A stretch of DNA of 64,000 nt from an uncultured Dialister sp. (GCA_900543165.1 UQQQ01000003.1:283-64282), one strand, 5' to 3'; positions 1,461-59,649 are shown, numbered from the stretch's first letter. Notes: a model not told the origin generated them from the sequence alone. Program-made: numbers and translations.

Positions 1461-1555
1461 GATACAATGTGTACAAGATAGGGGTAGTGTACCCTTTTTT
1501 AGAAAAAGCAGACGGTATTCTGCGTACTGCCTTTTTTCCGATGGAGGATCTTGCC

Positions 1556-3219
1556 ATGAAACGTACCATACAATCGCTATCTCTTAGTCTTTTGACAGCC
1601 CTTCTTTTTTCAGGCAGTGTGAGTGCTGCGCCGGCGCTGCCGCAGCTCGATCCGAAGGGTCCGGCGGTGCAGAAGGTGACAGATCAGGCGTCGCGCATGA
1701 GTGAGACGAACCAGCAGGTGGCATCGTACTATCAGAAGAGCCGCTACCGCACGCTGGATGCGGTGCATTCCTCAGAGGCGGAAGCTGAAAAGGGCGGGCT
1801 TGTCTTTGAAGTGAAGGAAATCCGTGTGACGCCGTCGAAATTTCTTTCCGCAGAGGAGATCCGGAAGGCCATCCATTTCAAAGGCGCAGGGCCTGCCACT
1901 GTGAAAGAGCTGACGGACATGGTGGCCCGCCTGAATGCGCTGTATCAGGAGAAGCATATCGTGACGGCGCAGGCCGTGCTGCCGCCACAGAAGGTACAGG
2001 ACGGCGTGGTCTACATCCGTCTCATTGAAGGGAAATTCGGCAAGACGGTCATCACGGGAAATCAGCGGATTTCCGAGAAGACGCTCCTCTCGCGCATCCA
2101 TGGAAGGATGGGCGAACTGGTGGACGTGGACCGGCTCGAGGATGAGCTCCGCGTGTATAATTCGACGAATACCTATCAGGTGCGGGCAGAGCTGGTGCCG
2201 GGAGAAGAGGAAGGGACCTCCGACCTCCATCTGGTGCTCGAGGAGAAGGAGAATCCGCTGACATCCTTCATTTTCACGGACAATGCGGGGCAGAAAGAGA
2301 GCGGCCGCTACCGCATCGGCGCGTATACGGAGTACCGCGGGATCGGCGGGCATGATGCGAGCCTCGCAGTGAGCCCGGTGTGGACGGAAGGCATCTGGGG
2401 CGGCTCGGTGATGTACGATACGCCATGGGGGCATCACGGGACGCGGGCGCAGATTTCCTATAGCAGAAATCTGGTGGATATCATCGACGGCACCTTCAAG
2501 GACTATGACATGAAGGCAAATTCGAATGACGCGGCGATTTCCATCACGCATCCTGTGAATATCACGCCGCTTTCCCGTGTGGACGTCTTCCTGGAAGGCC
2601 ATCGGAAATGGTCGGATACCACATACTCCGGGATGGAGCTTTCGAATAGCGCGACGCGCACGGTGAAGGCCGGACTGTCAGCGCGGAGCTTCGATGAGAA
2701 CGGGCTGTGGTTCTTCATGACCAGCGTCACCGGCTACGAAAGCGATGACCGCGTGAATGATAAGGATAACAACGGCTCATATATAGCGCCTACCTCATGC
2801 GCCGGCAGAATCTCAAAAATGACCAGTACATGCTCTACCGCCTCTACGGCCAATACACCGCCTTCGAGTCGCTGCCCTCGACGGAGCAGTTCACGCTGGG
2901 CGGCATGGGGAGTGTCCGCGGATACCAGGAAAGTATCCTTTCGGGCGATAAAGGCTGGTTCACCGGTATGGAGTACGGCTTCCCCATCAGCAGTGACCAT
3001 CAGACATGGCGAGGCTTCGTCTTCCTCGACCACGGTGTCGCATATAACAATTTCACCATCAAAACAACGAAGGACTATCTCACGAGCGCGGGCCTCGGTC
3101 TGGAGTGCAGCAAGGGCGGCTGGTATGGTAAGGCCGTCCTCGGCATCCCGCTCAAGGATTCCGGAAATATCGGAGATGCATCGCCGAGAGTGCATTTCTA
3201 TCTGCAGAGGAATGTGTAA
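1556..3219 (+). CDS. TpsB-type two-partner-secretion transporter (ShlB/FhaC/HecB family), frameshifted near 2779-2785.
   Basis: Signal peptide MKRTIQSLSLSLLTALLFSGSVSA, RBS GGAGG, POTRA-like N-terminus and a beta-barrel C-terminus (...GMEYGFPISSDHQTWRGFVFLDHGVAYNNF...VHFYLQRNV). The ORF track splits it into 1469..3247 (frame 2, Ser/Arg junk after ~2790) and 2797..3219 (frame 1). The shift sits at an ATATATA tract. Removing one TA gives a continuous ...NNGSYSAYLMRRQNLKNDQYMLYRLYGQ... Confidence 0.75.
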
Positions 3220-3566
3220 TTTTGAGGGACTGGTGACTGGTGGCTAGTAGCTAGGGATTAGTGGCTAGGGATTAGGTTTGCGATACGAGAAAACCGCTAG
3301 TTTCAAAACTCCGCGGCGCTTCATTATTTTGCGTCGCACCAACCCCTTTGAACCTCTTAAACCTATAGCGATGAGTAGCTAGGGATTAGGGATTGGGGAT
3401 TAAGAGTGACTAGTGACTGGTGACTTGAATACTGCTTTCGGGCATCGCCCCATACATATTCGCGGCGAAGCCGCCACCACAACCCTGAACCCTGAACCCT
3501 GAACCCTGAACCCTTAAACCCTTCAACCGATCTTCATGATCTTTCGACACAAAGGAGGACCATCTT

Positions 3567-5294
3567 ATGAATAAAATCTACAAAGTCGTCTGGAATGCCA
3601 CGCGTGGCTGCTATGTGGTCGCTTCGGAGCTGGTGAAGACGCACCGGGGGAAGAAGAGCGTGCGCCGCGGCGGGAGCATCCTCTCCCGCGCAGGGACGGC
3701 ACTGCTCCTTGCTATCGCAGGCTGGGGCGCGGCTTGCAATTTCATTTACGCAGATGTCAACGTGGCGGATCCGGCTCACACTGGCAAGGTGGATAAGACC
3801 CCGCTCGCAGGCGGCGGCACGCAGTATGACATCTACAACCAGCAGGTCAACAATGGCAGTGCCCTGAACAAGTTCACGGATTTCGGTATCGGACAGAAGG
3901 ACGTGGCGAATCTTCAGCTCGGCTCCTCGGTCGATCGCCAGATCAACCTAGTCAAGAACCGCATCAACATTGATGGCGTGGTGAATGCGATCAAGGATAA
4001 TAAGATCGGCGGGGACGTGTATTTCTTCTCGAATGCAGGCATTATGGTCGGCAAGACTGGCGTATTCAATGTGGGGCGTCTGACGCTGGGGACGAATGCG
4101 GCGTATGGCGAAGCGCTGTACAATGGCGGGATGGAGAAGCATTTGGCGCAGTCCGCTACGGCGCAGGCGAAGGCTGTCGCTGGCGGCAGTGACATCACGC
4201 TTCAGGGGAAGGTCTATGCCCAAGGCGATGTGATCGTGGGCGCAGGCGATGTATCTCTGAACGGTGCGGCTGTACGCACGCATGTGGATAATGCAGGCAC
4301 TTACGCAGCGCAGAAAACCGCCGATGAATATAGAAATCAGCTGGTGAATATCAATACCCCGTCGGCTACGGTCGCCACTGCTCTCGGCAAGGGCGATGTC
4401 GCACTGGCGGCTGTCGGTGTACCGTCGGAAGCGAAATCCTTCGAGACCAAGGGTGCGATCGTCATTGACAAGGCATACATTGACGCGTCAGGCGGTGACA
4501 CGTCGGTCATCGCCAGCGCGGAACGGAATGGCGGGAATCTCATGGGCAGCCAGGCTTCGGCGTCGGTCGATATTTCGAATGCCACCATCAAAGGGCAGCA
4601 TGTAGGCATTGCGGCGAAGACGGAAGTCAGCGGCAAGGTCGGCTCGGCGGATGCGTATAAAACAGCTGCGGAAGAGGATGGTATCCTCGGACTGCTCCAT
4701 GCGACCTTTGATGAACAGGTGGGAAATCTGGCGTCTGTCGTGAAGACGGGCGCAGACTCTCTCGTGACGGTCAAGGATTCGCAGCTCACCGCGGCGGAAG
4801 ACCTTACGATTTCCTCGAAGGTAAAGTCGGAAATTGGCAGTGAGACGGGCGGCGCTCTCGGCGTCGGGATCAATGTCGGCATCGCGGACGTTTCCTCGAA
4901 AGTAGAGATCCAGGGGACAAGTGCGCTCACGGCAGGGAAGGATCTCGCGATTTCTGAGGAAGGCAGTAACGCTATCGATCTCCAGCGGCAGGGCAGCGCG
5001 GAAGATCTTCCCATCGCGATCGATCTTGGCTGGGCGGAAGCGAAGACAGATGCATCCGTCAATGTAGACAAAGAGGCGACGCTGAAGGCGAAAGAAAATG
5101 TAGACGTATCGGCGAAGGCAGAGAGAAATCTCTCCGTCGAGGTCGAGAACAGCAGCGGCGACGGCACGCTGGGCCTCGCGGTCGGCGTCATCCAGTCCGA
5201 GACGAAGGCAACGGCCGATGTGCAGGGCAAAGTCTATGCAAATGGCAAGGTCAGTGTCAGAGAATACGGTATCGGACGAAGATGGGAAGTATGA
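3567..5294 (+). CDS. TpsA adhesin fragment 1/7 (ESPR signal peptide + TPS domain).
   Basis: See the parent feature. RBS AAAGGAGG. Frame 0. Confidence 0.7.
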   Translation: MNKIYKVVWNATRGCYVVASELVKTHRGKKSVRRGGSILSRAGTALLLAIAGWGAACNFIYADVNVADPAHTGKVDKTPLAGGGTQYDIYNQQVNNGSALNKFTDFGIGQKDVANLQLGSSVDRQINLVKNRINIDGVVNAIKDNKIGGDVYFFSNAGIMVGKTGVFNVGRLTLGTNAAYGEALYNGGMEKHLAQSATAQAKAVAGGSDITLQGKVYAQGDVIVGAGDVSLNGAAVRTHVDNAGTYAAQKTADEYRNQLVNINTPSATVATALGKGDVALAAVGVPSEAKSFETKGAIVIDKAYIDASGGDTSVIASAERNGGNLMGSQASASVDISNATIKGQHVGIAAKTEVSGKVGSADAYKTAAEEDGILGLLHATFDEQVGNLASVVKTGADSLVTVKDSQLTAAEDLTISSKVKSEIGSETGGALGVGINVGIADVSSKVEIQGTSALTAGKDLAISEEGSNAIDLQRQGSAEDLPIAIDLGWAEAKTDASVNVDKEATLKAKENVDVSAKAERNLSVEVENSSGDGTLGLAVGVIQSETKATADVQGKVYANGKVSVREYGIGRRWEV

Positions 5295-6243
5295 TCCCGA
5301 TACGCTCCACATCACGAGCGAGAGCGAAAGCGATGATGGCACCAGCTCGGATCCCATTCACGACATCGTGGACGTAGCGATGACCAAGGGCAAGGGCAAC
5401 CAGCTCATGGCGGGCATCAAGAAGCTTTGGGGTGATAAGTCGACGGAGAAGAAGGCGGCAGACGCCGGGACGACCGCGGCTGACCAGATCGCGGCGACGA
5501 GCGCGGGCGGCGGCCTCGGGCTCAATGCTGCGACGGCTTTCCTCTTCAGTGACAACAGCGCGAAGGCGTCCCTTTCGGGTGAAGTGCGCGGCTATGATGG
5601 AGCAAGCGGTGCGGGCGCAGTCGATGTACACGCGGAGACCTTGTCGCGGACGAAGGTGAAGGCAGGTGTCAGCCAGGGTGCGGACAAGAGCGCCGGCATC
5701 GCGGCGGCGGTGAACTACGTCGACCAGAATGACAAGGCCGAAGCCGAACTCGCGGGTGACATCAAGTCCAAGGGCGATGTGAAGGTCAGCGCGGAAACGA
5801 AGCGCCCCTGGCAGTCGAACCTTGAAGGCTTCGGTGAAAATCTTGCGGATGACTTGGCAACCATTTTCGATCCGAATAATGGTTTTGAACTGTCGTGCCT
5901 GACCGACTCTTGGACGCAGACGGTCGGCGCGGGCGAGAAAGTCTCCGGCGCAGCGGCGCTGAACATCATGGAATACAACCACACCGCGAAAGCAACGGTG
6001 AAGAAGGATACGAAGGTAGACATCGATAATGGCAATCTCGATGTCAGCGCGAAGAATGATATCCACACTGTGAATTTCAGCGGCGACATCAAAGCGCCGA
6101 TCGGCGACCAGCCGGGGAGCCTCGATTTTGGGAAGACATTGGAGGAAGTCCTTTCTCCGGCAGCGGGAAAGCCGCATTGGGCGGCGCGGCGCTTACCGTG
6201 CATCAGAAGAATACCGCCGAAGCCACCGTGGAAGATGGCGTGA
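5218..6243 (+). CDS. TpsA adhesin fragment 2/7.
   Basis: Frame 1 continuation (…SDEDGKYDPDTLHITSESESDDGTSSDP…). The shift lies between ~5250 and 5290. Confidence 0.55.
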   Translation: MCRAKSMQMARSVSENTVSDEDGKYDPDTLHITSESESDDGTSSDPIHDIVDVAMTKGKGNQLMAGIKKLWGDKSTEKKAADAGTTAADQIAATSAGGGLGLNAATAFLFSDNSAKASLSGEVRGYDGASGAGAVDVHAETLSRTKVKAGVSQGADKSAGIAAAVNYVDQNDKAEAELAGDIKSKGDVKVSAETKRPWQSNLEGFGENLADDLATIFDPNNGFELSCLTDSWTQTVGAGEKVSGAAALNIMEYNHTAKATVKKDTKVDIDNGNLDVSAKNDIHTVNFSGDIKAPIGDQPGSLDFGKTLEEVLSPAAGKPHWAARRLPCIRRIPPKPPWKMA

Positions 6244-8905
6244 CTGTGACGAAGGCGAAGGATGTCAGCGTCACGGCGGAGAACAAAGGCTCGAATCTTT
6301 CCATGGCGGCTGCGGGCGGCAAGGGGCAGACCGTTGCCATCGACGGGACAGTCAATGTCAACCGTTTCGAAAACACCACCAAAGCCACGGTCGGCAAAGC
6401 GACCATCAACGCAGACGGTGACGTCAGCGTCAGTGCTGAGGACAATAGCAAGACCATCAACATCGGCGGTGCGATCGCTGTCTCCGAACAGGCAGGCATC
6501 GGCGCCACCGTCGCATACAACCACATCGACCGCCAGACAGAAGCATCGCTCCAGGGGAAGGTCACTTCTACGAAAGACGTCTCCGTCACCGCCAAGAACA
6601 CCGGCGCGATCTACGCCATGTCCGCAGCCGGCGGTGTCACCATGGATAGCACCGAGGCGAACGGCGCAGGCAGTACCGGTCTGAAAGCACAGGAAGGTGA
6701 GGACAGCCAGAGCACCTCTTCGATCGGCGAACTGGCAGAAAAACTGCTGAACGCAGGCAAGTCGGACAAAGATAAGAAAGAGATCCAGAAAAGCGACTCC
6801 GCACTGGACACCATCGCAGGAAAAGATGCGTCCATGGGTGAGAACGTCGGCACCGCAAAGGGCGGCTTTGCCACGGCGGCGAATGTCTCCGTGAATCGTA
6901 TCACCGATACGGCGAAGGCGTATACGAAAGGAAATATGGTCACTGCCGATGCGCTCGCCATCCGTTCCGGCAATGACAGTAAGATCACGACAGGCGCGGG
7001 TGCGATCGCCCTCGGCCTCTCGCAGAACAGCAGTGCCATCGCAGGGAGCTTCATGTACAACGCCATCACGGACAAGAATGAAGCCTATGCCGAAGATGCA
7101 GTGCTGACGCTCCAAGGCAGCGAGAAGGAAGACGCTTCCCTCACTGTCGAAGCGGACAACGCGGCGAAGATCACAAATATCGCAGCGAGCGGCAGTGGTG
7201 CGGCAAAGGGCAGCGCCATCGCGGGCCAGATCAGTCTGAACTGGGTGGATAATGAAACCGACGCCCATGTGAAGGGCGGCCGTCTCACTGCGGATGAAGC
7301 GGCGACCATCGCGGCCAAAGACCGCGGCACCATCGACTCCTACACGGGCGCGGTGGCGATTTCCGCTGGCAATAATGGAGCGGCGGTGGGGGCGTCCATC
7401 GCAGCAAACCTCATCGAAGGGGAAACCACCTCTTCGCTCGAAGATACCACAGTGAACAGCGGCGGCGCCCTCTCCGTCACCGCGGATGAGACCAGCCAGA
7501 TCCAGTCCATCGTGGCGGCCTTCTCGGCGAGCGGGAACTGGATCCACACGAAGACGGATGCCCATATTTCCAATGACAATACCATGAAGACAGGGGCGCT
7601 CTCCGTCCTGGCGAAGAATGGAAGCAATGCGACACTCGGCGTCGGCAGTGCGGCTGTCGGAGGAAACTCCGCCGGCGCATCCATCGGCGTTATGGTGAAC
7701 CAGTCGGAAGTCGCAGCTACGCTTACCGGCGATAAAGATAAGAATCATACCATCACCGCGGACGGCATCACTGTACAGGCGGATAATGCGTACAATGGCG
7801 CGGCTTCGGATACAGATGATAAGACTGCTAGGACCGTCGCTGTCGGCTTCGCTGGCGGCACCTCGCAGTTCGCGGGCTCCGGCTCTGTCACGGTGAATGT
7901 CATCGACCAGAAGACCGATGCGACTATCGGCAAGGGCAAGTACGATGCAGGGCGAAAGGCGGCTCAGGTAGGTGCGACAAGCACCGCGAAGCTCTTCGGC
8001 CTCGCGGGCGGCGCGTCCCTCTCCGCGGGAAGCGGTATTGGCGCAGCTGTCGACGTCCAGACCTACAACGGTCACACCTATGCAGGCATCGCCGACGGTG
8101 CGTCCCTGAAAAATGCGTCCTCCGTCACCGTGAATGCGGACTCGAAAGAACACCTGACCTCTGTCGCAGCGCCCCTCGCCGGCGGAGCCGGTACTTTCGC
8201 AGGGGCAGGGGCAGCTGGCGCACACTCCGTCTCGACCGATACGAAAGCGTATTTGGGCCAGAGTGAAGTGACGGAGGCCGGTGATGTCTCTGCCACCGCC
8301 AAGGATGAAACGGAACTGAAAACCGTCGCAGGCAGTGGTGCTGCCAGCGGAAATACCGGTGTCGGTCTCACCGCAGCGGTCGAAGTGGTGAACAAAAAAG
8401 CTAGTGCGATCGTGGGTGACGATGTGAAAGTGACAGGCAGCAGCCTCACCGTGAAAGCAGAAAACACCAGCAGCAGCGTGACCAGTGCTGCCGGTCTCGG
8501 TGCCGGCGGTACGGCAGGTCTTGCCGGAGCGGCATCGGAAACCTTCATGAAGCAGGAAACCGATGCACATGTCGGCAAGAATGCGAAAGTTACCGTCAAG
8601 AAGGGCGCGGAGATTCTTGCCGATTCGAAGTTTACGCAGGGCGCGGCGGCGGGCAGCGTCGGTGCGGCGGGAACGGTCGGCATGGGGCTCACGAATTCCA
8701 CGGTTTCCTTCACGGGAGACACCGCCGCTTATGCGGATGAGAACGCGGTTATCGATGGCGGGGAAAAAGTCAATATTTCCGCAACCCAGCTGACGAAGGT
8801 AGACTATGGCACGGTCGCGGGCGCGGTGGGCGGCACGGCGTCTCTCTCCGGCACCGTGGGTGTCAATGCGCTGAAGACGACCACGAAAGCCTATGCAGCA
8901 GCCAG
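6177..8905 (+). CDS. TpsA adhesin fragment 3/7.
   Basis: Frame 0 (…AALGGAALTVHQKNTAEATVEDGVTV…). Protein-like text ends near 8905, and the track ORF runs on into junk until 9035. Confidence 0.55.
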
Positions 8906-10074
8906 CTCTCGGCGAAGACAGCAAACGCAGAAGGGATCGCGGTCACGGCCAGCGATGAGACAACGCTCAAAGGTGACAATGGCGGCGTGTCCATCGGCAT
9001 TTCCGGTGGAAGCGCGGGTGCAGCCATCGGCGTGACGAATATTTCCAAAGATACAGAAGCCTTCCTGGGCGGAAGAGCCGCTATTGATACCGCGGGGAAG
9101 ACGAAGATTTCCGCGAAGAATCAGGAAAGCTTCGTGAATGTCACCGTGCAGGCTGCCGGCGGGCTCTATGCCGGCCTTGCGGGCGCAGTGAATGTGACGA
9201 ATCTCTCCGCTGTCACCAAGGCGTACACGGGAGATGACGTTTCTTTCAATCAGGCAGATAAAAAAGGCAGCGATGTCACGGTCGAGGCGAAGCACAATAT
9301 TGACAAGATGACGAGCGCGGTCGCAGGCGCGGCGGTCGGTGCAGGAGCACTGGGGGCGGCGGTAGATATCGGTACGATTCGCACGCAGACGAATGCGTTC
9401 CTGGGGGAAAATAACAAGCTCCACACGGATGGCGCGCTGGTGATCGATGCGGCGGATCACATGGAAGGCATTTCCACGAATGCCATCGCGGCAGCCGTGG
9501 GTGGATTCGGTGTCGCAGGCAGCGTCTCGGTGTACAACTTCTGCAGTATCATGAGTGACAGCGATATTGCCATGCTCTCGGGCAAGACCAGCAAGGATGG
9601 CGGCGAAAGCTCCATGGACGACTGGGTGAATGGCGAAATCAACAAGTCCCAGACGGGCAATGCCATGGGTGTGTACCAGACAGATGCGCTTACGGATGTG
9701 AAAAATAAACTGGAAACGAAATTCCAAAGCGAGACGCCGGATATGGGTGAGAAAGGGACGCTCGCCCAGATCGGGAACGGCAGCACTGTCACGGCAGACA
9801 ACGTCCGGATCAAGGCGGATGATAAGCTCTCCGTCTCGAACCTCATGGGCAATGTCAGCGCAGGCGGCAGCGCGGCGGGCATCTCGGTCAATGTCGTCCG
9901 CACGGATACCTTGACGCAGGCGAAGACGGGAGAGAACTCTTCTATCCGGTCGGTGGGAGATGTCCAGATTTCTGCGGGCTCTGACCATCAGATGAAAAGT
10001 GACATCGTCGGCGCGTCCCTCTCCGGCGGTATCTCCGCTCAGGGGACGGAAGAGACCTGGATGGACAAGAGCAT
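8906..10074 (+). CDS. TpsA adhesin fragment 4/7.
   Basis: Frame 2 (…QLSAKTANAEGIAVTASDETTLKGDNGGVSIGISGG…). It ends at the 7-bp duplication at 10068-10081. Confidence 0.55.
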
Positions 10075-10076
10075 AG

Positions 10077-33297: not shown

Positions 33298-33768
33298 TCA
33301 CTGATACTGCCCGATCGCCTGCTGCATTTTTTCGGCGCTGTCCATGAGGTGATTGGCTTTCTCCATGAGCGCATCCATGCGGGGGTCTTTGTCTTCGGTG
33401 ACCGTTGCGCCGCTTGCAAGGATACCGGCAGACAAATTTCCGCCCGAGATTTTGACATAGGTGTCGCCGATGAGGCCGGAAGTGGTGATGGAGAATGCCG
33501 CATCCTTGGGGATCATGGCTTTCTGATTGATTTCCAGATGAAGGACGGCCTTGCCTTTTTCGATGGTGATGGCTTTCAGCCGCCCGACCTTGACGCCGGC
33601 GTGGAGCACGGAAGCCCCCGGCGTGATGCCCTGCGCATCATCGAAGACAGCATAGACGGGAAAGGTGGTAGGGAAGAGCCGTTCCATCGGATGCAGAAGG
33701 AGCGCAGCGATGTCGATGGCAAGAAAGAGGAGAAGGGCAGTCATGCCGATTTTGGTTTCTTTGGTCAT
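33298..33768 (-). CDS. MlaD/MCE-domain protein.
   Basis: N-terminal TM helix plus MCE domain (…VGRLKAITIEKGKAVLHLEINQKAMIPKDAAFSITTSGLIGDTYVKISGG…). Confidence 0.6.
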   Translation of the reverse strand: MTKETKIGMTALLLFLAIDIAALLLHPMERLFPTTFPVYAVFDDAQGITPGASVLHAGVKVGRLKAITIEKGKAVLHLEINQKAMIPKDAAFSITTSGLIGDTYVKISGGNLSAGILASGATVTEDKDPRMDALMEKANHLMDSAEKMQQAIGQYQ

Positions 33769-33799
33769 GATGGGGATCCTTTTTGCGAAATAGTAAGGC

Positions 33800-34490
33800 T
33801 GGCGGGGGTTAGCCCTTGGGGCGTGCCGTTCCTTGATTACGTTTGAAAGCCTCGATTGAATGAGAAATTAGAAATGAGAAATACGAAATGGTGGTGCGGC
33901 GCATAAAAACAGGGAAGCGCCGCAGAGTATAGATAATGGCGATGCCCGAAGGTGGTATTTAGTCACCAGTCACTAGTCACTCCTAATCCCTAGTCACTAG
34001 CTACCAGTCCCCAGTCACCAGTCACTTCTCCTCATTATACCCTCTTTTCCCTTCTTGTGCTAAAATAGGATGGAATGGCAAAAGAGCTTTTGCCATTCGG
34101 TATAATCGTTTCGGCCCGGGACAGTGTCTGTTCACGGGTCAGGTGAATTCTATATCGCCAGAGATATAGAAAGCGCAGCATAGAGATGGAGTTAGAAGTT
34201 AGAAGTGGTGGTGGTGGCGGCTTCGCCGCAATTATATATAGGGTGATGCCCGCTTGTGTCTTTCAAGCCTTAAAAACAAGGTTTGAAAGCAGGGATGAGT
34301 GGCTAGGGATTAGGGATGAGAAGCAAGCGGTGATTGAAGTAGCGCAGTTAGCGCGCTGACCGTTCTGCAAGGAGGATCTCTCGGCTACGCTCGAGATGAC
34401 GATGCGCGTGAAGCGCTATTAAAACTCCGCGGTGCTCTATTATTTTTTTGCGCCGCTCCTGCATTTCTCATTTCTAATTAGCTCTCTATG
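33800..34490. repeat. Composite repeat block upstream of the McrBC-like module.
   Basis: Module A, heptamers, GGTGGCGGCTTCGCCGC hairpins and a partial TCTCGGCTACGCTCGAGATGACG module. Confidence 0.75.
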
Positions 34491-34513
34491 CTGCCAACGA
34501 AAGAAGGATGCAT

Positions 34514-36670
34514 ATGGCAAACATGTATATGAATGATTCGTATTCAGCTGTCCGTCAGGCGGATGGCAAGGTGCTCGGGCGGGTGCGTGCTGTGGTGAAG
34601 AGCGCGACGCCGCAGGCGGGGGTGAAGGATTTCCGTTTCTTTGTGGATCCTGTCTCGCCGCTGCCTAAGGGATTCGATGATGGAGAAAAATTCGGCTTCA
34701 CGGGCTTCATGAGCCGTATCGGCTTCGGATACAATTCATTCGCCGATGAGGAGTCGGCACTGGCGAATCTGGAGTCCGTCTTCGGGGATTGTTTCGTGTC
34801 GTTTACACCGTCGCTCCGCAATAACAGGTACTTTGTGCTGGATGATATGGTGAAGGAGGCGGGGACGCCCTTCATGGAGGAGGACCGGAATTATTATCCG
34901 GTGCCGGCTTTCGGCACGGAGGAGATGCCGGTCTTTGATGGGGATATCAATAAGTTCTGCCATCATCTGCTGACGGATCGGCCGCTGCCGGGGCTGTCGA
35001 AGCGTTACTGGAATAATGATGTGCCGCCGCGGCTCATTGTGGCGGCGACGCGCAATTATGAGAATAAGATCGGGTCGTGGGTGGTCTTTGCGCCGCTGTA
35101 TGATGAGGCCTTCGATTCCCGCGTGATCGGGGAGGGCGGAGCGTATTTCCGTGTGAAGAACCGCGGTCAGCTGGGGTATGCGGTGGTGGACGGACAGAAT
35201 TCGGAGCTTTCCTCGCACATCCTTCGCTGCGCGGAGAGTCCGCTCTGGTTCGTACCGGAGGTATTTCTGGCGGATCTCAGGCTGAATCTGAAGCCTGTGC
35301 CGCGGGATGCAGATCTCTTGAAGGACTGCGGGGTCGCGGTGAATCCTTTCGCAGATGAGATGGACGAGGGGGAGCCGGGCCATGAGGTGCGTGAGCAGAT
35401 GACGCAGAAGGCGCTCGATGATCTGGTGCAGAGCCTTGGCATCGGTGCTTCGAGTGAAGAGGCGTATGCCCCGAGAAGAAATCGGCGGGATCCCCGTCTC
35501 TCCCATGAGGCAGAGGCGATAGAGAAGGCGCCTGCCTTTGAGGAAATGCATCAGGAGTCGGCAGCGCCGGTGAAAGAGAGGCCGAAGGCGTTCACGGAGG
35601 CGGATTTCCTCGCCCGCCTGAAGGAGGCGGCGGAAAATGACGGGCTCCTCTATGCAGAGAAGGATCTGTTCCATTTCCATATCTCCATGAAGTCGTCCCG
35701 TCTGGTCATCCTTGCCGGGAAAAGCGGGATCGGCAAGTCCGGCCTGGTGCGTCTTTACGGGCGTGCGCTGGGGCTGCCCGAGGCGCAGGTGCGTTTCCTG
35801 CCGGTCCGTCCGTCGTGGATGGATGACGGGGATGTCCTGGGCTATGTGGATATGAAAAATATGGTGTACCGCAGCGCGGACACGGGGCTCGCTGAGCTTC
35901 TGATCGACGCGGCGGCGCATCCGGAGAAGCAGTACATCGTCTGCTTCGATGAGATGAATCTGGCGCGCGTGGAGCATTATTTCGCACAGTTCATTTCTGT
36001 GCTGGAGAAAGAGGATCATCCGATGATCCGTCTGTACAATCCGTCGCTCGCCCCGCGGCTCTACAACAGCGAGAAGTATCCGCCGGAGATCCCGGTGGGG
36101 AGCAATGTGCTTTTCACAGGGACGGTGAATGTGGATGAGTCCACTTGCCATTTCTCGGATAAGATCCTCGATCGTGCGAATGTGATCACGCTCAGCCAGT
36201 GCCATTTCCGTGATCTGCTGAAGCTGAAGCCGCAAGAAAGAAAGGCGTACAAGGAAATCACGGCCAAGGCGTATGATGATTTCCGCGTGAAGGAGGGGAT
36301 GGGGCTCAATGATCAGGAGCTCGACCTGCTGGATGCGCTGAATGATGCCTTCACGAAGAGCGGTATGCCGTATGGCATCGGCTTCCGCGTGGCGCAGCAG
36401 ATGGGACGCTATCTGGAGAATATTCCCGAGGAGGCGGGGATCAGCCGTGGAGACGGGCTCGATGCCCAGCTCGTGCAGCGCGTCTTCACGAAGCTTCGCG
36501 GCTCCGCTGACCAGCTGTCGGCGCTGCTCTCTCTTTCGGATAAGAATACGGCAGAGGGGCTGCTGCCGGCGATCCTTGTACGGTTTAAGGCGCTCTCGGA
36601 TTTTCAGGAATCTCAGGCCGTGCTGAAACGGAAAGCCGGGGAGCTGAAGCTCTATGACTACACCATGTAA
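34514..36670 (+). CDS. McrB-family AAA+ GTPase with a long (~380 aa) uncharacterised N-terminal domain.
   Basis: Walker A LAGKSGIGKSG, the McrB-type motif CFDEMNLARVEHYFAQFISVLE (compare IIDEINRAN), and ...NVLFTGTVNVDEST...SDKILDRANVITL (compare MNTADRS...ALRRRF). Start ATG 34514 with GAAGG 6 nt upstream. Confidence 0.7.
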   Translation: MANMYMNDSYSAVRQADGKVLGRVRAVVKSATPQAGVKDFRFFVDPVSPLPKGFDDGEKFGFTGFMSRIGFGYNSFADEESALANLESVFGDCFVSFTPSLRNNRYFVLDDMVKEAGTPFMEEDRNYYPVPAFGTEEMPVFDGDINKFCHHLLTDRPLPGLSKRYWNNDVPPRLIVAATRNYENKIGSWVVFAPLYDEAFDSRVIGEGGAYFRVKNRGQLGYAVVDGQNSELSSHILRCAESPLWFVPEVFLADLRLNLKPVPRDADLLKDCGVAVNPFADEMDEGEPGHEVREQMTQKALDDLVQSLGIGASSEEAYAPRRNRRDPRLSHEAEAIEKAPAFEEMHQESAAPVKERPKAFTEADFLARLKEAAENDGLLYAEKDLFHFHISMKSSRLVILAGKSGIGKSGLVRLYGRALGLPEAQVRFLPVRPSWMDDGDVLGYVDMKNMVYRSADTGLAELLIDAAAHPEKQYIVCFDEMNLARVEHYFAQFISVLEKEDHPMIRLYNPSLAPRLYNSEKYPPEIPVGSNVLFTGTVNVDESTCHFSDKILDRANVITLSQCHFRDLLKLKPQERKAYKEITAKAYDDFRVKEGMGLNDQELDLLDALNDAFTKSGMPYGIGFRVAQQMGRYLENIPEEAGISRGDGLDAQLVQRVFTKLRGSADQLSALLSLSDKNTAEGLLPAILVRFKALSDFQESQAVLKRKAGELKLYDYTM

Positions 36671-38372
36671 GCTGCCGTTCAGCGTGGCACTCGGCAAGCG
36701 GGAGGCGATGCGGCCTTTCACCCGCTTCACCACGCACCCGGAGGAGCTCAAGGATGCGCCGCCGGCGTGGCGCTTCACGGAGAATCAGGATCTCTACCTG
36801 CGCTTTGAGGCACCGATGGATTTCCGCTTCACCATGGATGGGCTCGACATCGTGACGATCCCCGGCGAAGAGCGATATGACGGAGAGACATGGGTCCGCC
36901 CGCGGCGCGCCTGGGATACGCTCCTCTTCAAGGGGGAGGATTTTCCCTTAGTCCCCGGCTACTATGTCCTGACCGTCACGGGACGCGGCGAGACATGGTA
37001 CAGCCTTCTGGAGATCACGCCCCGCTACATGGGCAAGCAGAGCTGGCAGGATATGGGCGAGGAGCTCTTGGAGGAAATCAAGCATCTGTCCTTCGATTTC
37101 ATGAAAAAGAGCATCCACATGTCGCGCGCGCTGGATATCAATCCCGATCTCCTGCTGCGCTTCTATACCATCAGCGACAAATCCCGCATGGTGCTGCATG
37201 TGCTGGGAGAGCTCGCCCGCACGGCAAACGGCCGCCTCGTGCGCCGGAAGAAACCAGCCCGCACAGCCGGCGTCTCTCCGGCGGCGTCGCACATCCCGCC
37301 CCAGTCCCTGCGCCCTTCGGCCGGGCAGCATCTGCTGTATACGGAAATGACCTACGATGTCGCGGAGAACCGTTTCGCCAAAGCCATCCTGCTTCGCCTC
37401 GCGAAGAATCTGCGAGACTTCGTCAGTGAAGTCGATGGATTCATCGCGCGCCTCGATGCCAGATGTCAGGCGCTCCTGCCGTACACGCAGAATCAGGAGT
37501 ACCGAAGAGGCGAGGCGGCGCTCGTCAAATTCCGCGACTATCGGAAACAGGCGCTCGCCATTCTTCGCGACATCGAGCGCGTCACCCGCGCGGCATGGTT
37601 CGAAGAAGCCGGCAGCCGGATGCCGCCTCTCATCCCCATGACCGTCCTCTGCGATCCGCGCTACTCGCTCCTCTACCATCTCCATCGGCATCTGGAGAAA
37701 CCGGAGGAAAGCTACTCGGTCGCTGATTTTTATCAGTTCCAGTGGAAACGGACGGATAAGCTCTACGAGCTCTGGGGATTTCTCCAATTTATCAAAGCCC
37801 TCTCCTCGCTGGGATGGGAGATGGAAGAAGGCATGTCCGTCATCAAAGAGGATGGCCGCTACCGCCTCTCCTCGCTGGAGTCCGGCGCCGTTATCACCAT
37901 GAAGAAGGGCGAAGAAGCGATCCGCCTCACCTACGACGGCATCGTCCCCGCTGCGTCCGCCGACACCGACCGCATGACCGCACCGCTCTACACCAATAAC
38001 GCCCACCGCCAGCCCGATCTTCGCATGGACTGCTATCAGGGGCACATGTACTGCGGCTGTCTGGTCGTCGACTTCAAGTACCGTGACATGCTCTTCCTAT
38101 GGAACGATGAAAACCGCGGCGAGGGATTGCGCCGCCAGTTCAACAGCTATCGCGATATGAATACAAAATTCTACCGCGACATGGATGAAACGCAGTCCCT
38201 CCGCGACAGCCGGCCAGTCAAGGAAGTCTGGGCTGTCTTCCCCAGAGAAGTCCCCGGCAGCAGCGATGAGGACTACAGCCTGAGATTCATCCCGCTCTCA
38301 CCGGGCAGCGAAAGCCGTCTGCCCCAGCTTTTGGAAGACTATCTGAAATCATTGGGGCTGGGCGGCGACTAG
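36654..38372 (+). CDS. McrC-like partner with a PD-(D/E)xK nuclease core (DUF2357-like).
   Basis: Overlaps the McrB-like stop by 17 nt (translational coupling). The C-terminal region has PDLRMD...VVDFKYRD, a PD...D/ExK motif. The TAG stop lies in GACTAGTGGCTGGTGACTAGG repeats. Confidence 0.6.
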   Translation: MTTPCKLPFSVALGKREAMRPFTRFTTHPEELKDAPPAWRFTENQDLYLRFEAPMDFRFTMDGLDIVTIPGEERYDGETWVRPRRAWDTLLFKGEDFPLVPGYYVLTVTGRGETWYSLLEITPRYMGKQSWQDMGEELLEEIKHLSFDFMKKSIHMSRALDINPDLLLRFYTISDKSRMVLHVLGELARTANGRLVRRKKPARTAGVSPAASHIPPQSLRPSAGQHLLYTEMTYDVAENRFAKAILLRLAKNLRDFVSEVDGFIARLDARCQALLPYTQNQEYRRGEAALVKFRDYRKQALAILRDIERVTRAAWFEEAGSRMPPLIPMTVLCDPRYSLLYHLHRHLEKPEESYSVADFYQFQWKRTDKLYELWGFLQFIKALSSLGWEMEEGMSVIKEDGRYRLSSLESGAVITMKKGEEAIRLTYDGIVPAASADTDRMTAPLYTNNAHRQPDLRMDCYQGHMYCGCLVVDFKYRDMLFLWNDENRGEGLRRQFNSYRDMNTKFYRDMDETQSLRDSRPVKEVWAVFPREVPGSSDEDYSLRFIPLSPGSESRLPQLLEDYLKSLGLGGD

Positions 38373-38879
38373 TGGCTGGTGACTAGGGACTAAGAGACCA
38401 GGAGACATCAGACGTTCTCGTATCGTCATTTCGAGCGAAGCGAGAAATCTTTCTTGTAGTCCGATAAACGACGCACTTGAGATGCATTTCCCCGCGCTCT
38501 TTCATGCCGCCAGTGCCCTATCCGCCCCTACGGGGCAGCTTCCCCTCGAGGGGAAGGCTGACGATACGAGGGAAACCTGCTATCAAGAGACTTTCGGGCA
38601 TCGCCATTATTTATACGGCGGCAAAGCCGCCACCATAAGTTTGAAAGCAGGGATGAGTAGCTAGTGACTAGTGACTGGTAGCTAGGGATTAGGTTTGCGA
38701 TACGAGAAAACCGCTAGTTTCAAATCTCCGCGGCGCTTCCATATTTTTATGCGCCGCACCACCATTTCGCATTTCTCATTTCTAATTTCTCATTCAATCG
38801 AGGCTTTCAAACGTAATCAAGGGGTGAGCCGCCCCCAGGGCTAACCCTGAACCTTGAACCTTTTTCCTCAGGAGCATCT

Positions 38880-39488
38880 ATGACCATTTACGGACCCTAT
38901 AAAGCCTCTCTCAAAGCTGTCATGGACGGCTTTGCGCAGGGCATCCGCGCCTACAGCGAGGCAGAAAAAGAGAAGACGGGAGAGATGCTTTACGAGCATC
39001 TCTCGTATCGTCTGAAAGCAGAAGACAGCATGAAGGAGAAGCTCACGCGGAAAGGATTTCCCCTCACCGCCGAGTCTGCCTGCTATGCCGTGAAGGATGC
39101 CATCGGATTCCGCATGGTGTGCCGCTTTGTGGATGACATTTATGAAAACGTCTCCCGCTTGAAAGCCCTCCCCGGTGTCGTTGTCGCAAAAGAAAAGGAC
39201 TATATCAAAAACGTCAAACCCAATGGCTACCGCAGCTATCATATGATCCTGGATGTCACCGCTCCCTATGAAGATGCGAAGGGCAGAAATCCGGGGCATT
39301 TCTTCATCGAGATCCAGCTCCGCACCATCGCGATGGACTCATGGGCGGCGCTCGAGCATGAAATGAAGTACAAGCACGAGGTGGAAAATGCGGCGCTCAT
39401 CAGCCGCGAGCTCAAGCGTTGCGCCGATGAACTCGCTTCCTGTGACCTCTCCATGCAGACGATACGGAATCTGATAAGGAAGACATGA
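38880..39488 (+). CDS. Small alarmone synthetase (RelA/SpoT synthetase-domain, RelP/RelQ-like).
   Basis: …DAIGFRMVCRFVDDIYE…NGYRSYHMILDV…FFIEIQLRTIAMDSWAALEH… 202 aa. Confidence 0.7.
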   Translation: MTIYGPYKASLKAVMDGFAQGIRAYSEAEKEKTGEMLYEHLSYRLKAEDSMKEKLTRKGFPLTAESACYAVKDAIGFRMVCRFVDDIYENVSRLKALPGVVVAKEKDYIKNVKPNGYRSYHMILDVTAPYEDAKGRNPGHFFIEIQLRTIAMDSWAALEHEMKYKHEVENAALISRELKRCADELASCDLSMQTIRNLIRKT

Positions 39489-39595
39489 CTGGTAGCTGGT
39501 GGCTGGTGACTAGTCCCTGGTCCCTAGTCCCTAGTCACTAGTCACTTCTATCCCCTAATCCCCACCCTCTTATATTTTTTACTGAGGTCAAACCT

Positions 39596-40270
39596 ATGAA
39601 AATCCTGCTTGCTGAAGATGAAAAAGCATTATCCGATGCCGAAGTCGCGGTGCTCCGTCACTTCGGCTATGAGGTCGATGCGGCCTATGACGGTCTCTCT
39701 GCCTGGCAGATGGCGGAGCGCGAAGCGTATGACTGCATCGTTCTTGATATTATGATGCCGAAAATGAATGGCATCGAAGTCCTTGCCAAGCTCCGCGAGA
39801 GCGGCAGCACGGTGCCGATCATCATGCTCACCGCGAAGACCGAGGTCGATGACCGCATCGCAGGTCTTGATGCGGGCGCAGATGATTACCTGACGAAGCC
39901 CTTCGCGATGGGCGAATTTCTGGCGCGCATCCGCTCGATGACCCGCCGCGCGAATGCCTTCACCCCCGCCGTCCTTTCAGCAGGCGGCGTTACGCTCAAT
40001 GTCGAAGAGCAGGAGCTCTCGGCGGAAAGCGCGATCCGTCTTGGCAGCAAGGAGACAAAGCTCATGAAGTATTTCATGATGAATGCCGGCAAAGCACTCA
40101 CACAGGAGGAGATCCTGCGCTATGTGTGGAGCGATGAGCCTGACGTACCGGCAGATATCGTGTGGATGTATATTTCCTTCCTGAAAGAAAAGCTCGCCGC
40201 CGTCCGAGGCAAGGCGGTGATCGAAGGGGAGAAGGAAGGCCCTTTTGCGCTGCGCGCGATGGGGGATTAG
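39596..40270 (+). CDS. OmpR-family response regulator.
   Basis: Receiver domain (…VLDIMMPKMNGIEVL…MLTAKT…) plus winged-helix C-terminus. TAG stop inside GGGATTAGGAGTGACTGG. Confidence 0.8.
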   Translation: MKILLAEDEKALSDAEVAVLRHFGYEVDAAYDGLSAWQMAEREAYDCIVLDIMMPKMNGIEVLAKLRESGSTVPIIMLTAKTEVDDRIAGLDAGADDYLTKPFAMGEFLARIRSMTRRANAFTPAVLSAGGVTLNVEEQELSAESAIRLGSKETKLMKYFMMNAGKALTQEEILRYVWSDEPDVPADIVWMYISFLKEKLAAVRGKAVIEGEKEGPFALRAMGD

Positions 40271-40592
40271 GAGTGACTGGTGACTGGGAGACTAGGAGAC
40301 TGTAGGCTCTCTCGTATCGTCATTTCGAGCGAAGCCCTCGAATCTTTGTCATTTGCGGTCCGGCAGTCGATGTTTGGAACTCCCAAATGGGAAACCTGTT
40401 ACCCACTCACTTTCGGGCATCGCCCTATTTATACTCGCGGCGCTTTATAATTTTTATGCGCCGCACCACCATTTCGCATTTCTCATTTCTAATTTCTCAT
40501 TCAATCGAGGCTTTCAAACGTAATCAAGGGGTGCCCCGCCCCAGGCTAACCCTGAACCCTTTTTGTTATCCAATGTGCCAAGGACCTCATTC

Positions 40593-41843
40593 ATGGATAT
40601 GATCAAGAAACTGCACCGCCAATTCATACTTCTGGCCACGCTGGCGGTGTTTATCATCGTGGCGGTCGCGCTCTCTGTCATCAATGGGATGATGTACCTC
40701 ATTGTGCGGGGGGACATTCATAATGTGCTGGAAACCATCGCAGACAATGGCGGCGTCATCACCACGCGGCGCACGAGCGGGGAAGGCTGGCTCCCGGATG
40801 GCAGTTGGGTCGAGGATACGCCGGAATTTACGTACCAGACCCGTTATTTTTCCGTCTTGCTGGACAGTGATGGCACAGCCAAGGTGACGAATATCAATCA
40901 CATCGCGGCTTTTTCGGCGGAAAGTGCGGTAGAGGCAGCGGTGGCTGCGGTGAAGACGGGGGAGAGCGAAGGCTATTTCCAAAAACAGAAGGGAACCTAT
41001 GCGTACCATGTGAGCCGCACTGCGGAGGGCGATCTGCTGGTCGTCATTCTGGACTGCACGCGCGATCTCTCGGCGGTGAAGGCCTTCCTGAAATATTCTT
41101 CTCTCTTCGGGCTGCTCTGTCTTCTGCTTTTCGTCGGTATCGTGACGGTGCTTTCGGGGATCGCGATTCGTCCCTTCGTCAGAAATATGGAGAACCAGAA
41201 GCGATTCATTACGAATGCCAGCCATGAGCTGAAGACGCCGATCGCGATCATTTCCGCGAATGCAGAGGCGATGGAGCTGATCAACGGCAAGAACGAGTGG
41301 ACGGGCAATATCATTTCGCAGGTGAAGCGCCTATCGCTCCTCATCAATGACCTTGTGTTGCTCTCCAAGATCGGGGAAACGTCAGCCAAGGACTTGACGC
41401 TTATCGATACGGATCTTTCGGAGGCGGTGAAGAGCAGTACGGGTAGTTTCCGCCAGATGATCGAAGACGCAGGGAAGACGCTCTCTGTAGAAGCGGGAAG
41501 CGGCATCCGCGCGAAGGTCGAGTCGCGGCTCTTCTCAGAAATCGTGAGCATCCTTCTGGACAATGCGGTCAAGTATTGTGATGAGAAGGGAACGATCACC
41601 GCTCATCTGGAGAAAAATAAAAAGGGCGTGATCCTCTCTGTTTCCAATCCTTACAAAGAGGGAGCGTCTGAGGACTATGAACGCTTCTTTGAGCGGTTCT
41701 ATCGCGGAGATACATCGCACAACAGCAAAAAGTCCGGCTATGGCATCGGGCTCTCCATGGCGCGCGACATGGCAAGGCTCATGAAGGGAAGCCTCGATGT
41801 GTCATACAAGGATGGGGTCATCACGTTTAGCGTGAGCCTGTAG
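40593..41843 (+). CDS. Sensor histidine kinase.
   Basis: Two TM helices, H-box NASHELKTPIAII, HATPase_c G-boxes. Confidence 0.75.
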   Translation: MDMIKKLHRQFILLATLAVFIIVAVALSVINGMMYLIVRGDIHNVLETIADNGGVITTRRTSGEGWLPDGSWVEDTPEFTYQTRYFSVLLDSDGTAKVTNINHIAAFSAESAVEAAVAAVKTGESEGYFQKQKGTYAYHVSRTAEGDLLVVILDCTRDLSAVKAFLKYSSLFGLLCLLLFVGIVTVLSGIAIRPFVRNMENQKRFITNASHELKTPIAIISANAEAMELINGKNEWTGNIISQVKRLSLLINDLVLLSKIGETSAKDLTLIDTDLSEAVKSSTGSFRQMIEDAGKTLSVEAGSGIRAKVESRLFSEIVSILLDNAVKYCDEKGTITAHLEKNKKGVILSVSNPYKEGASEDYERFFERFYRGDTSHNSKKSGYGIGLSMARDMARLMKGSLDVSYKDGVITFSVSL

Positions 41844-44649: not shown

Positions 44650-44945
44650 CGGTAGAGCAGGGATTGGAAATAAAAAAATCCGTCCCTCGACTGAGGGACG
44701 GATACTGGTTCCGCGTTACCACCCTGATTCCTGAAGGATATGACTATCCCAGGCGCTCTACAACGTACAAACATACGCGTTTCCTGTAACGTGGAAATGA
44801 CGTCGGCGCTTAATAGGTTTCAGCACCGCACCTCAGGGATGATTTTCATATGTCCTGTCCTGCCGGATTGCACCAGACTCCGGCTCTCTGAGAAGATCTC
44901 GGAAATACTACTCTTTCCCTTCAAAGGGTTTTCTTCGTGTGAAGA
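44650..44945 (-). promoter_or_regulatory. T-box riboswitch leader with sigma70-like promoter (TTGACA 44977-44982, TATAAT 44953-44958) and terminator (44672-44704).
   Basis: On the minus strand: the T-box sequence AATCAGGGTGGTAACGCGG (plus 44711-44729); an AGAGA/GUA stem I; a candidate specifier loop ...GAAAAUCAUCCC (AUC = Ile, tentative); and a terminator hairpin ATCCGTCCCTCAGTCGAGGGACGGAT followed by a U-run. Confidence 0.75.
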
Positions 44946-54544: not shown

Positions 54545-54885
54545 GGGGTCAGGGTTAGCCCCTAGGGCGCAGCGTCCCCTTGATTACGATTGAAAGCCTC
54601 GCTTGAATGAGAAATTAGAAATGAGAAATGCGAAATGGTGGTGCGGCGCATAAAAGTATAGAAGCGCCGCGAAGTAAAGATAGTGGCGATGCCCAAAGGT
54701 AGTATTTACTCACCAGCCTCAAGTGACTGGTGACTTGAATACTACTTTCGGGCATCGCCCTATATATACTCGCGGCGAAGCCGCCACCACCATTTCTAAT
54801 TTTTCATTTCTAATTCCTCATTTGGGCAGAGCTTTCACACGCAATCAAAGGACGGTACGCCCGAGCGGATAACCCTGAACCTGCA
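54545..54885. repeat. Pair of module-A copies in inverted orientation (~140-bp arms) around a heptamer core.
   Basis: GGTTAGCCCCTAGGGCGCAGCG…GCGATGCCCAAAGG // CCTTTCGGGCATCGCC…GGATAACCCTGAACC. Confidence 0.8.
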
Positions 54886-59302: not shown

Positions 59303-59649
59303 GTTAGGGGAATGGTTCAGGGTTAGCCCGTGGGGTGTGTCGCCCTTTGATTGTGAATGAAACTTTGTCTGAATGAGGAATTAGGAATGAGGAATTAGGA
59401 ATGGTGGTGCGGCGCATAAAAATCAGAAGCGCCGCGGAGTATAAATAGTGGCGATGCCCAAAGGCGGTATTCAAGTCACCAGTCACTAGTCACTAGTCAC
59501 TCCTAATCCCTAATCCCCAGCCACTCATCCTTCATCCCCGCTTTCAAACGTAGTTTGTGGGCGTCCCCTGAATCCATAAATCCATTTCTTTCGAAGAACG
59601 TATACCGTAGGATAGAAGCATTGCCTGAAGGCAAAGAGGAGGAATTCGT

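Follow-up and report, generated by a model that had tools for sequence, protein, structure and literature searches.

Positions 34514 to 38372 of a 64,000-nucleotide (nt) stretch of DNA from an uncultured Dialister sp. (GCA_900543165.1 UQQQ01000003.1:283-64282), the whole of which is referred to here as the window, hold two overlapping genes on the plus strand whose products resemble the subunits of McrBC. Gene 1 (34514..36670) encodes an McrB-like (CnuB-like) protein of 718 amino acids (aa), as indicated by its open reading frame (ORF), a Shine-Dalgarno sequence and start codon, the names of its orthologues and a match to the PADLOC model PDC-M26A (E = 3e-39). Gene 2 (36654..38372) encodes an McrC-like (CnuC-like) protein of 572 aa, whose ORF carries the Pfam domains DUF2357 and PDDEXK_7. 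An original prediction, made from the DNA alone, had described the pair as an McrBC-like two-gene module, and this description is borne out by E. coli McrB being the sole sequence match in the Protein Data Bank (PDB), by the NCBI names of the orthologues and by the Pfam domains of gene 2. The sequence thus indicates a real, intact McrBC-type two-gene module.

The ORF of gene 1 has two candidate starts, at 34508 (720 aa) and at 34514 (718 aa). The second is likely the true start, because an AGAAGGA Shine-Dalgarno sequence lies 5 nt upstream of it, orthologues of gene 1 begin with MAN or MGN, and separate gene callers arrive at 718 aa. The stop of gene 1 and the start of gene 2 overlap by 17 nt (36654..36670, plus strand), where ctctATGACTACACCATGTAA encodes L-Y-D-Y-T-M-stop in the frame of gene 1 and M-T-T-P-C-K in that of gene 2, implying that translation of the two genes may be coupled. 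This overlap is identical in plasmid homologues of Bacillus pseudomycoides and Lactococcus lactis, and is also present in Dialister orthologues; both it and all of the motifs quoted in the original prediction were found in the order given there. Purifying selection on the pair is strong, with ratios of nonsynonymous to synonymous substitution rates (dN/dS) of 0.03-0.15 across every folded part and of 0.03-0.06 in gene 2.

The C-terminal half of gene 1 is predicted to form a McrB-type AAA+ GTPase domain (35591..36670, plus strand), based on a match to E. coli McrB, on invariant motifs and on relatives encoded by plasmids. In the 718-aa numbering, used here unless the 720-aa model is named, the domain contains a Walker A motif (GKSGIGKS, aa 402-409, 35717-35740), the McrB-type segment PVRPSW..D.LGY (35801-35845), a Walker B motif (FDEMN, aa 478-482, 35945-35959), the signature NVDE (NxD-E, aa 539-542, 36128-36139) and the motif DRANVI (aa 553-558), all on the plus strand. 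The Walker A (GxSGxGKS), Walker B (FDEMN) and N539-V-D541-E542 motifs are invariant among 22 family sequences. When gene 1 was compared with solved structures, E. coli McrB was the only sequence match, both with the single sequence and with a profile of the 22-sequence family (E 0.002-0.003), in an alignment that spans Walker A, the McrB-typical PxxxSxxxxDxxGY segment (S-x-x-x-D-x-x-GY) and Walker B. Pfam returned a match to AAA_5 alone, just under the gathering score, and the NCBIfam McrB equivalog was the best match for gene 1, yet far under its cutoff, while Dialister orthologues with 63-65% identity carry the NCBI name 'McrB family protein'. Sequence support for the McrB-type assignment is therefore specific but weak, and the presence of the Walker A, Walker B, NVDE and McrB-typical segments in the AAA+ protein accords with what had been predicted.

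A comparison of motifs with those of Bell et al. 2024 (PMC11090510) indicates that NVDE fits the 'NxD' variant, with a glutamate after it, a point that the original prediction had missed. This signature, usually with E or D in the next position, defines a major branch of McrB GTPases that is experimentally uncharacterised (PMC11090510). Ungapped alignment to NTAD of E. coli places the E of NVDE at the D position, so that an 'NxxE' reading is formally possible. Gene 1 also shares 34% identity with the published Type I-A CnuB ROR86958.1 over the 67 residues available of that protein, and 42% (E 9e-99) with plasmid proteins whose signature is NLDE. These features suggest that gene 1 belongs to the NxD branch, a placement made by motif and pairwise similarity rather than by phylogeny.

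Gene 2 begins with an N-terminal extension of ~110 aa, followed by DUF2357 (PF09823, aa 113-256; 1.1e-7, 31.8 bits against a cutoff of 23.3), a helical spacer and a PD-(D/E)xK nuclease domain (PDDEXK_7, PF04411, aa 369-530; 4e-6, 27.4 bits against a cutoff of 22.1). Since both Pfam domains score above threshold, profile searching upholds the earlier claim of a PD-(D/E)xK core in a DUF2357/McrC-like gene. Every listed gene 2 homologue encodes PF09823 together with PF04411, and the orthologues bear the NCBI name 'DUF2357 domain-containing protein'. The motifs RQPDLRMD (aa 452-459) and VVDFKYRD (aa 471-478) contain the predicted catalytic residues D455 (of RQPDL; codon 38016-38018, plus strand) and D473-x-K475 (of DFK; 38070-38078, plus strand). 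As D455, D473 and K475 are invariant among 16 aligned orthologues, down to 48% identity, the gene 2 nuclease should be active.

The N-terminal module of gene 1

The original prediction had assigned to gene 1 an N-terminal domain of ~380 aa, rich in aromatic and acidic residues and unrecognisable by sequence. Its composition (13% aromatic, 14% acidic) and its lack of recognisable relatives were confirmed, but the region is better described as ~270 ordered residues plus a linker of ~85 residues, as judged from an AlphaFold2 model and from dN/dS. With the E limit relaxed to 10, Pfam still returned no match to the N-terminus of any of the 23 family members searched. A phmmer scan of 1.84 billion cluster representatives gave 26 matches, all of them members of the same family or fragments thereof bar two spurious ones. 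No known McrB reader domain was thus matched by sequence in Pfam or phmmer, and by these searches the N-terminus is a sequence orphan with relatives only in Dialister/Veillonellaceae. RTX protein P0259 and P0257 were considered as distant homologues of the N-terminal domain and rejected as compositional or wrong-frame artefacts.

AlphaFold2, run with a 23-sequence alignment, modelled aa 12-284 (720-aa numbering) confidently (mean predicted local distance difference test score, pLDDT, 87.7; predicted template modelling score 0.84), and AlphaFold models of the module reached pLDDT values of 86-88. From aa 285 on in the 720-aa model, pLDDT falls below 50, as for a disordered tail. Domain 1 (~aa 15-115 of the 720-aa model, 34550..34852, plus strand) is predicted to be OB/cold-shock/S1-like, with the topology beta1-beta2-beta3-alpha-beta4-beta5, and includes the motif FRFFVDP (aa 40-46). 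Domain 2 (~aa 125-284 of the 720-aa model, 34880..35359, plus strand) appears to be a divergent PUA-like domain of the EVE/YTH/ASCH-like kind and is the candidate modified-base reader. Invariant aromatic-bearing motifs of this domain include GDINKFCxH, W(N)N, GGAYF and PLWF, the last lying within PLWFVP (aa 243-248), and the invariant aromatic residues of the N-terminal part are F133, F148, W166, Y211, F212 and W245. An acidic low-complexity linker of variable length (~85 residues, 35360..35590, plus strand) joins the module to the AAA+ domain. The linker has no alignment consensus and evolves fast under relaxed constraint, with a dN/dS of ~0.46 compared with 0.09-0.15 in the folded N-terminal part, where dN/dS gave no sign of diversifying selection in the reader module.

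A Foldseek search of the N-terminus against the PDB returned nothing below E 0.07, and the weak matches were OB folds. These OB/cold-shock domain (CSD) matches, which disappeared in a further fold search, were assigned to domain 1 (aa ~15-115), whose strand-strand-strand-helix-strand-strand order is an OB topology. The modelled N-terminal fold appears to resemble those of known nucleic-acid and modified-base readers, OB-like and then PUA-like. Archaeal McrB homologues with PUA-like readers include Thermococcus gammatolerans McrB (N-domain, PDB 6p0g), and EVE-McrB fusions also occur. It had been argued that a non-homologous N-terminus implies a new target specificity; the want of sequence relatives stands, but the predicted fold appears to be of a known kind of reader and not a new one.

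This bears on the possibility that the pair is a classical DNA-targeting Type IV restriction system, residing in a mobile defence islet and equipped with a reader of wholly new fold and new modification specificity. An N-terminus with no homologue outside its family among the 1.84 billion representatives and no Pfam match, fold matches that are weak and an intact PD-(D/E)xK site would all suit such a system. We nevertheless regard it as unlikely, both because the predicted order of domains is that of a catalogued CSD-YTH-McrB arrangement and because of the genomic setting of the pair.

Genomic setting and inheritance

The N-terminal domain shares 97% identity with that of an uncultured Dialister metagenome-assembled genome (MAG), 70% with that of D. 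succinatiphilus and 55% with that of D. micraerophilus. When 185,579 species, each represented by a single genome, were scanned for the pattern, 34 loci were recovered, nearly all from Dialister/Veillonellaceae, the exceptions being a few short contigs in the MAG bins of other taxa and one marginal match in Acidimicrobiia. The scan did not detect the pair in several named Dialister species. In close relatives, the genes are ordered EamA, nitroreductase, MlaD, the pair, RelA_SpoT, response regulator and histidine kinase, and more distant Dialister lineages retain the upstream or the downstream neighbours. Divergence of both genes parallels that of these neighbours, and the pair was found at the same place in all ten distinct metagenome contigs that encode an identical RelA_SpoT protein. 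The pair therefore behaves as a stable, vertically inherited chromosomal locus that is fixed in the species. On one of the ten contigs, from a long-read assembly (L047, 3620-5777), gene 1 is split into ORFs of 665 and 69 aa, which is due either to a frameshift introduced by sequencing or to a natural allele that has lost its function.

Intergenic mosaic repeats flank the pair over 745 bp upstream (33769..34513; 93 BLAST matches elsewhere in the window, and heptamer arrays) and 507 bp downstream (38373..38879; 74 BLAST matches elsewhere in the window), in keeping with the more than 400 bp on each side that had been reported; neither region is part of the system. The defence islet that the original prediction derived from them is not supported, because the flanking repeats occur in almost every intergenic region of the window. 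The neighbouring genes are housekeeping genes, with no tRNA, insertion sequence (IS), integrase or other defence gene near the pair, and no relative is encoded on viral contigs. Together with the occupancy of all ten conspecific contigs and the synteny across Dialister, these findings tell equally against the mobile Type IV system outlined above.

The same setting raises the possibility of a domesticated nuclease-motor that serves DNA repair, chromosome maintenance or the control of natural DNA uptake instead of immunity. A syntenic position, flanked in many Dialister lineages by EamA/nitroreductase/MlaD and further housekeeping genes, would suit such a function, as would divergence similar to that of the neighbours, strong purifying selection with no diversifying selection in the reader, and the lack of IS, integrase and tRNA genes nearby. 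We consider this a minor and quite improbable alternative, since outside Dialister its nearest kin are plasmid operons flanked by IS elements, in one case beside an abortive-infection (Abi) gene, which is typical of defence cargo, and since the failure of the pattern scan to detect the pair in several named species means that it need not be universal in the genus. Furthermore, all characterised McrBC systems are, to our knowledge, restriction systems.

Three genes follow directly downstream of the pair (38880-41843, plus strand): one for a 202-aa small alarmone synthetase with a RelA_SpoT domain, and those for an OmpR-type response regulator and for a histidine kinase. According to Bell et al. 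(PMC11090510), operons of NxD-type McrBC are often found together with two-component genes. Adjacency of the RelA_SpoT and two-component genes to the pair is conserved in two Dialister clades only, and a regulatory link between them is a lead, not a finding. Upstream, a gene for a 156-aa MlaD-domain protein (33298-33768, minus strand) stands beside the McrB-like gene in many Dialister lineages, with varying orientation and spacing. MlaD was rejected as a third component of the system, given this variation in orientation and distance, a nitroreductase gene that sometimes intervenes, its absence in other clades, the synteny seen across the genus and the lack of a PADLOC match. Rfam, tRNA, promoter and terminator scans returned nothing relevant to the module.

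The repeats themselves are of two kinds. Heptanucleotide tandem arrays (AGTCACT/AGTCACC, AATGAGA, AACCCTG, CCTAATC) are present in nearly all intergenic regions of the window, for example at 1341-1389, 21187-21284, 21870-21961, 29324-29370, 33960-34026, 39503-39546 and 59474-59501. One 16-mer heptamer-array pattern has 97 matches in the window against 0.2 expected, and Tandem Repeats Finder returned 56 rows. In style, these arrays resemble the short tandemly repeated repetitive sequences of cyanobacteria. The others are mosaic elements of 100-180 nt; one of these, of ~110-180 nt, has at least 15 copies in the window, among them 33806-33941 (minus strand), 38712-38847 (plus), 40437-40543 (plus), 20633-20771, 54552-54728 and 59320-59524. 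Each of the three copies near the locus sits just upstream of a gene (MlaD, RelA_SpoT and histidine kinase, respectively) in the same orientation relative to that gene, as might be expected of a dispersed element that serves as promoter or 5' leader, or of a miniature inverted-repeat transposable element; Rfam has no family for it. The copies at 33806-33941 and 38712-38847 form 136-nt inverted repeats around the pair, and were rejected as transposon ends in view of at least 14 more copies in the window and their placement upstream of genes.

Two further features of the window lie apart from the pair. A two-partner-secretion locus (1469-3247 and 3567-18198, plus strand) encodes a ShlB/FhaC-type transporter (POTRA_2 and ShlB domains) and then a protein with an ESPR signal, and includes a run of co-oriented long ORFs of up to 1710 aa with no Pfam match. 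These ORFs may be separate genes, or else the pieces into which frameshifts have broken a single giant exoprotein; no exact sequence of the 1710-aa product is on record. A T-box leader is present at 44691-44933 (minus strand; Rfam RF00230, 132 bits).

Related systems on plasmids and in catalogues

The nearest relatives of the AAA+ domain outside Dialister are encoded on plasmids. Searches of plasmids with tblastn identified AAA+ domains with 42-44% identity (E ~1e-83) in Companilactobacillus, B. pseudomycoides and L. lactis, and the AAA protein of the B. pseudomycoides plasmid, which carries the motif GTVNLDEST, is 42% identical over aa 336-718 of gene 1 (E 9e-99). In the two loci whose layout was checked, from B. 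pseudomycoides (L053, operon at 4053-8998) and L. lactis (L054), the genes form IS-flanked three-gene operons encoding, in this order, a hypothetical protein of 347-393 aa, an AAA ATPase and a DUF2357 nuclease. The DUF2357 protein of the B. pseudomycoides plasmid aligns end to end with gene 2, N-terminal extension included (28% identity, E 2e-58), and PDC-M26A matches the plasmid relatives at ~1e-44. On the L. lactis plasmid p275A (4045-8896 of L054), the operon is enclosed by two copies of ISS1, with an abortive-infection gene close by. These plasmid operons probably represent mobile cargo in the form of Type I-B CoCoNuT systems. The N-terminal module in Dialister differs from those of its nearest AAA+ relatives in having no detectable sequence similarity to them, and the Bacillus plasmid N-terminus is nearly an orphan itself, with one partial match among 5.8 billion proteins. 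N-terminal modules of this clade thus appear to turn over or diverge very fast.

In Type I-B CoCoNuT systems, CnuB consists of a CSD, then a YTH-like domain and then an NxD GTPase, and has no fused coiled coil (Bell et al., eLife 2024, PMC11090510). CnuC comprises an Ig-like sandwich, McrC_N and PD-DxK, and CnuA is a separate coiled-coil protein (PYD/CARD-CoCo-REC) that is missing from the otherwise identical Pseudo-Type I-B; both types occur mainly in Bacillota (PMC11090510). The Dialister pair resembles Pseudo-Type I-B in its NxD(E) GTPase signature, in the predicted succession of OB-like and PUA/YTH-like domains at the level of fold, and in a gene 2 composed of an N-terminal extension, DUF2357 and an intact PD-DxK nuclease. 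Like the hosts of both types, its host falls within Bacillota, although it is a Negativicute and not Bacillus. Similar to Pseudo-Type I-B and unlike Type I-B, the pair has two genes and no CnuA, as the adjoining genes are the divergent MlaD-domain gene upstream and the RelA_SpoT gene downstream. The pair is best filed as Pseudo-Type I-B CoCoNuT-like, a likeness at the level of fold, and as new in its reader family and its host lineage.

Similarity to McrBC of E. coli K-12 (EcoKMcrBC) is more general. Both are two-gene operons with B before C, in which the B subunit bears an N-terminal reader and an AAA+ motor with Walker A, Walker B and an N..D signature, and the partner contains a PD-(D/E)xK nuclease and a DUF2357 domain that is functionally aligned with the N-terminal domain of McrC. 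However, sequence similarity is very low (E ~0.002) and limited to the AAA+ core, the signature reads NVDE where that of E. coli reads NTAD, the reader is of a kind other than DUF3578, and the Dialister protein has the ~85-residue linker. Gene 2 (572 aa) also differs from the 348-aa McrC of EcoKMcrBC by its N-terminal extension and its PF04411 match. A further likeness is to PDC-M26, since gene 1 matches PDC-M26A over the AAA+ core, but this match covers part of the 724-position profile and does not extend to gene 2. The PDC-x models in PADLOC are unpublished candidates of Payne et al., and the literature searched contained no mention of PDC-M26 or description of its composition.

Proposed function and significance

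Based on these comparisons, we propose that the locus is an NxD-branch McrBC-type system made up of two chromosomal genes, in which an OB plus PUA-like reader is joined by a linker to an AAA+ motor, with a coupled McrC-type partner that carries the nuclease; we hold this reading with moderate confidence. Taking McrBC of E. coli and T. gammatolerans as a template for the mechanism (PMC6624300, PMC7680126), the AAA+ domains of gene 1 would form a ring that is entered by the DUF2357 stalk of gene 2, which would stimulate nucleotide hydrolysis. The OB plus PUA-like N-terminal module could tether the complex to nucleic acid containing a modified base, and the D-D-K site of the PD-(D/E)xK domain would then cut. 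The analysis shows the gene structure, motifs, family assignments, purifying selection, taxonomic range and synteny of the pair; ring assembly, GTP use, dependence on modification, the substrate and a role in defence are inferred. As to the target, we lean slightly towards modified foreign DNA. The main competitor to DNA is modified RNA, the target that Bell et al. foresee for related CoCoNuT systems; we rate it as possible, if clearly less likely.

Several observations weigh against this proposal. The domain types that we assign to the N-terminus on structural grounds (EVE, YTH, ASCH and CSD) gave no Pfam match in any of the 23 family members at E up to 10, and the N-termini of gene 1 and its plasmid relatives are unrelated by BLAST and by profile-profile comparison with hhalign (probability <1%). 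For gene 2, the family profile matched no McrC structure among PDB sequences, and no PADLOC model matches the protein. Gene 1 is assigned to the NxD branch by its motif and pairwise similarity, and the literature searched, including that after Bell et al., holds no experimental study of an NxD-type McrB that would bear on GTP use or substrate. Finally, it is unusual for a defence system to be fixed and syntenic and to have no defence or mobile genes beside it.

Another reading is a system directed at RNA, in which modified or single-stranded RNA would be bound by the OB (cold-shock-like) and YTH-like domains, and the complex would bring about RNA degradation, dormancy or abortive infection under phage attack or stress. 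The NxD motif and the OB/PUA-like architecture are compatible with such a role. Bell et al. take the presence of CSD and YTH domains as a sign of RNA targeting and propose that Pseudo-Type I-B functions in a stress response that is not purely antiviral (PMC11090510). Vertical inheritance and fixation would likewise suit a cellular role, and the small alarmone synthetase and two-component system are encoded directly downstream on the same strand. On the other hand, PD-(D/E)xK nucleases are mostly DNases, and the locus encodes neither a HEPN domain nor any other RNase, coiled-coil partner or helicase. PUA-like and OB domains also read DNA, as in THYN1 with 5mC DNA and in TgMcrB-N, and the RelA_SpoT and two-component neighbours are conserved in just two Dialister clades. 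On balance, we regard an RNA-directed system as a serious but less likely alternative.

A broader version of this idea would retain the vertically inherited, species-fixed NxD-type McrBC, with the modified base that its cold-shock-like and YTH/EVE-like domains recognise lying in RNA or in nucleic acids of the cell itself. The pair would then act as a stress-linked or abortive RNA/DNA surveillance nuclease rather than in classical anti-phage DNA restriction, and could have a functional connection with the adjacent alarmone synthetase and two-component system. We consider this improbable, and continue to favour the chromosomal McrBC-type system with a modified-base reader.

McrB N-terminal domains set the targets of Type IV systems, so that any new family of readers is a candidate sensor of modifications and might serve as a tool in epigenetics. 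Some caution is warranted, as there are tens of thousands of McrBC systems with diverse readers and the architecture found in Dialister has already been catalogued computationally; what is new is best described as the reader family and the host lineage, while the NxD signature and the Pseudo-Type I-B CoCoNuT-like architecture are known. The Dialister pair nonetheless sits in a branch without an experimentally studied member in the literature searched. As a compact two-gene pair with an intact nuclease, no coiled coil and confident models, from a genus common in the human gut, it offers a tractable entry point to NxD-type McrBC, including its use of GTP and the question of DNA versus RNA cutting. 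That it is fixed and syntenic in Dialister is also relevant to the question of whether certain 'defence' modules turn into stable core genes.

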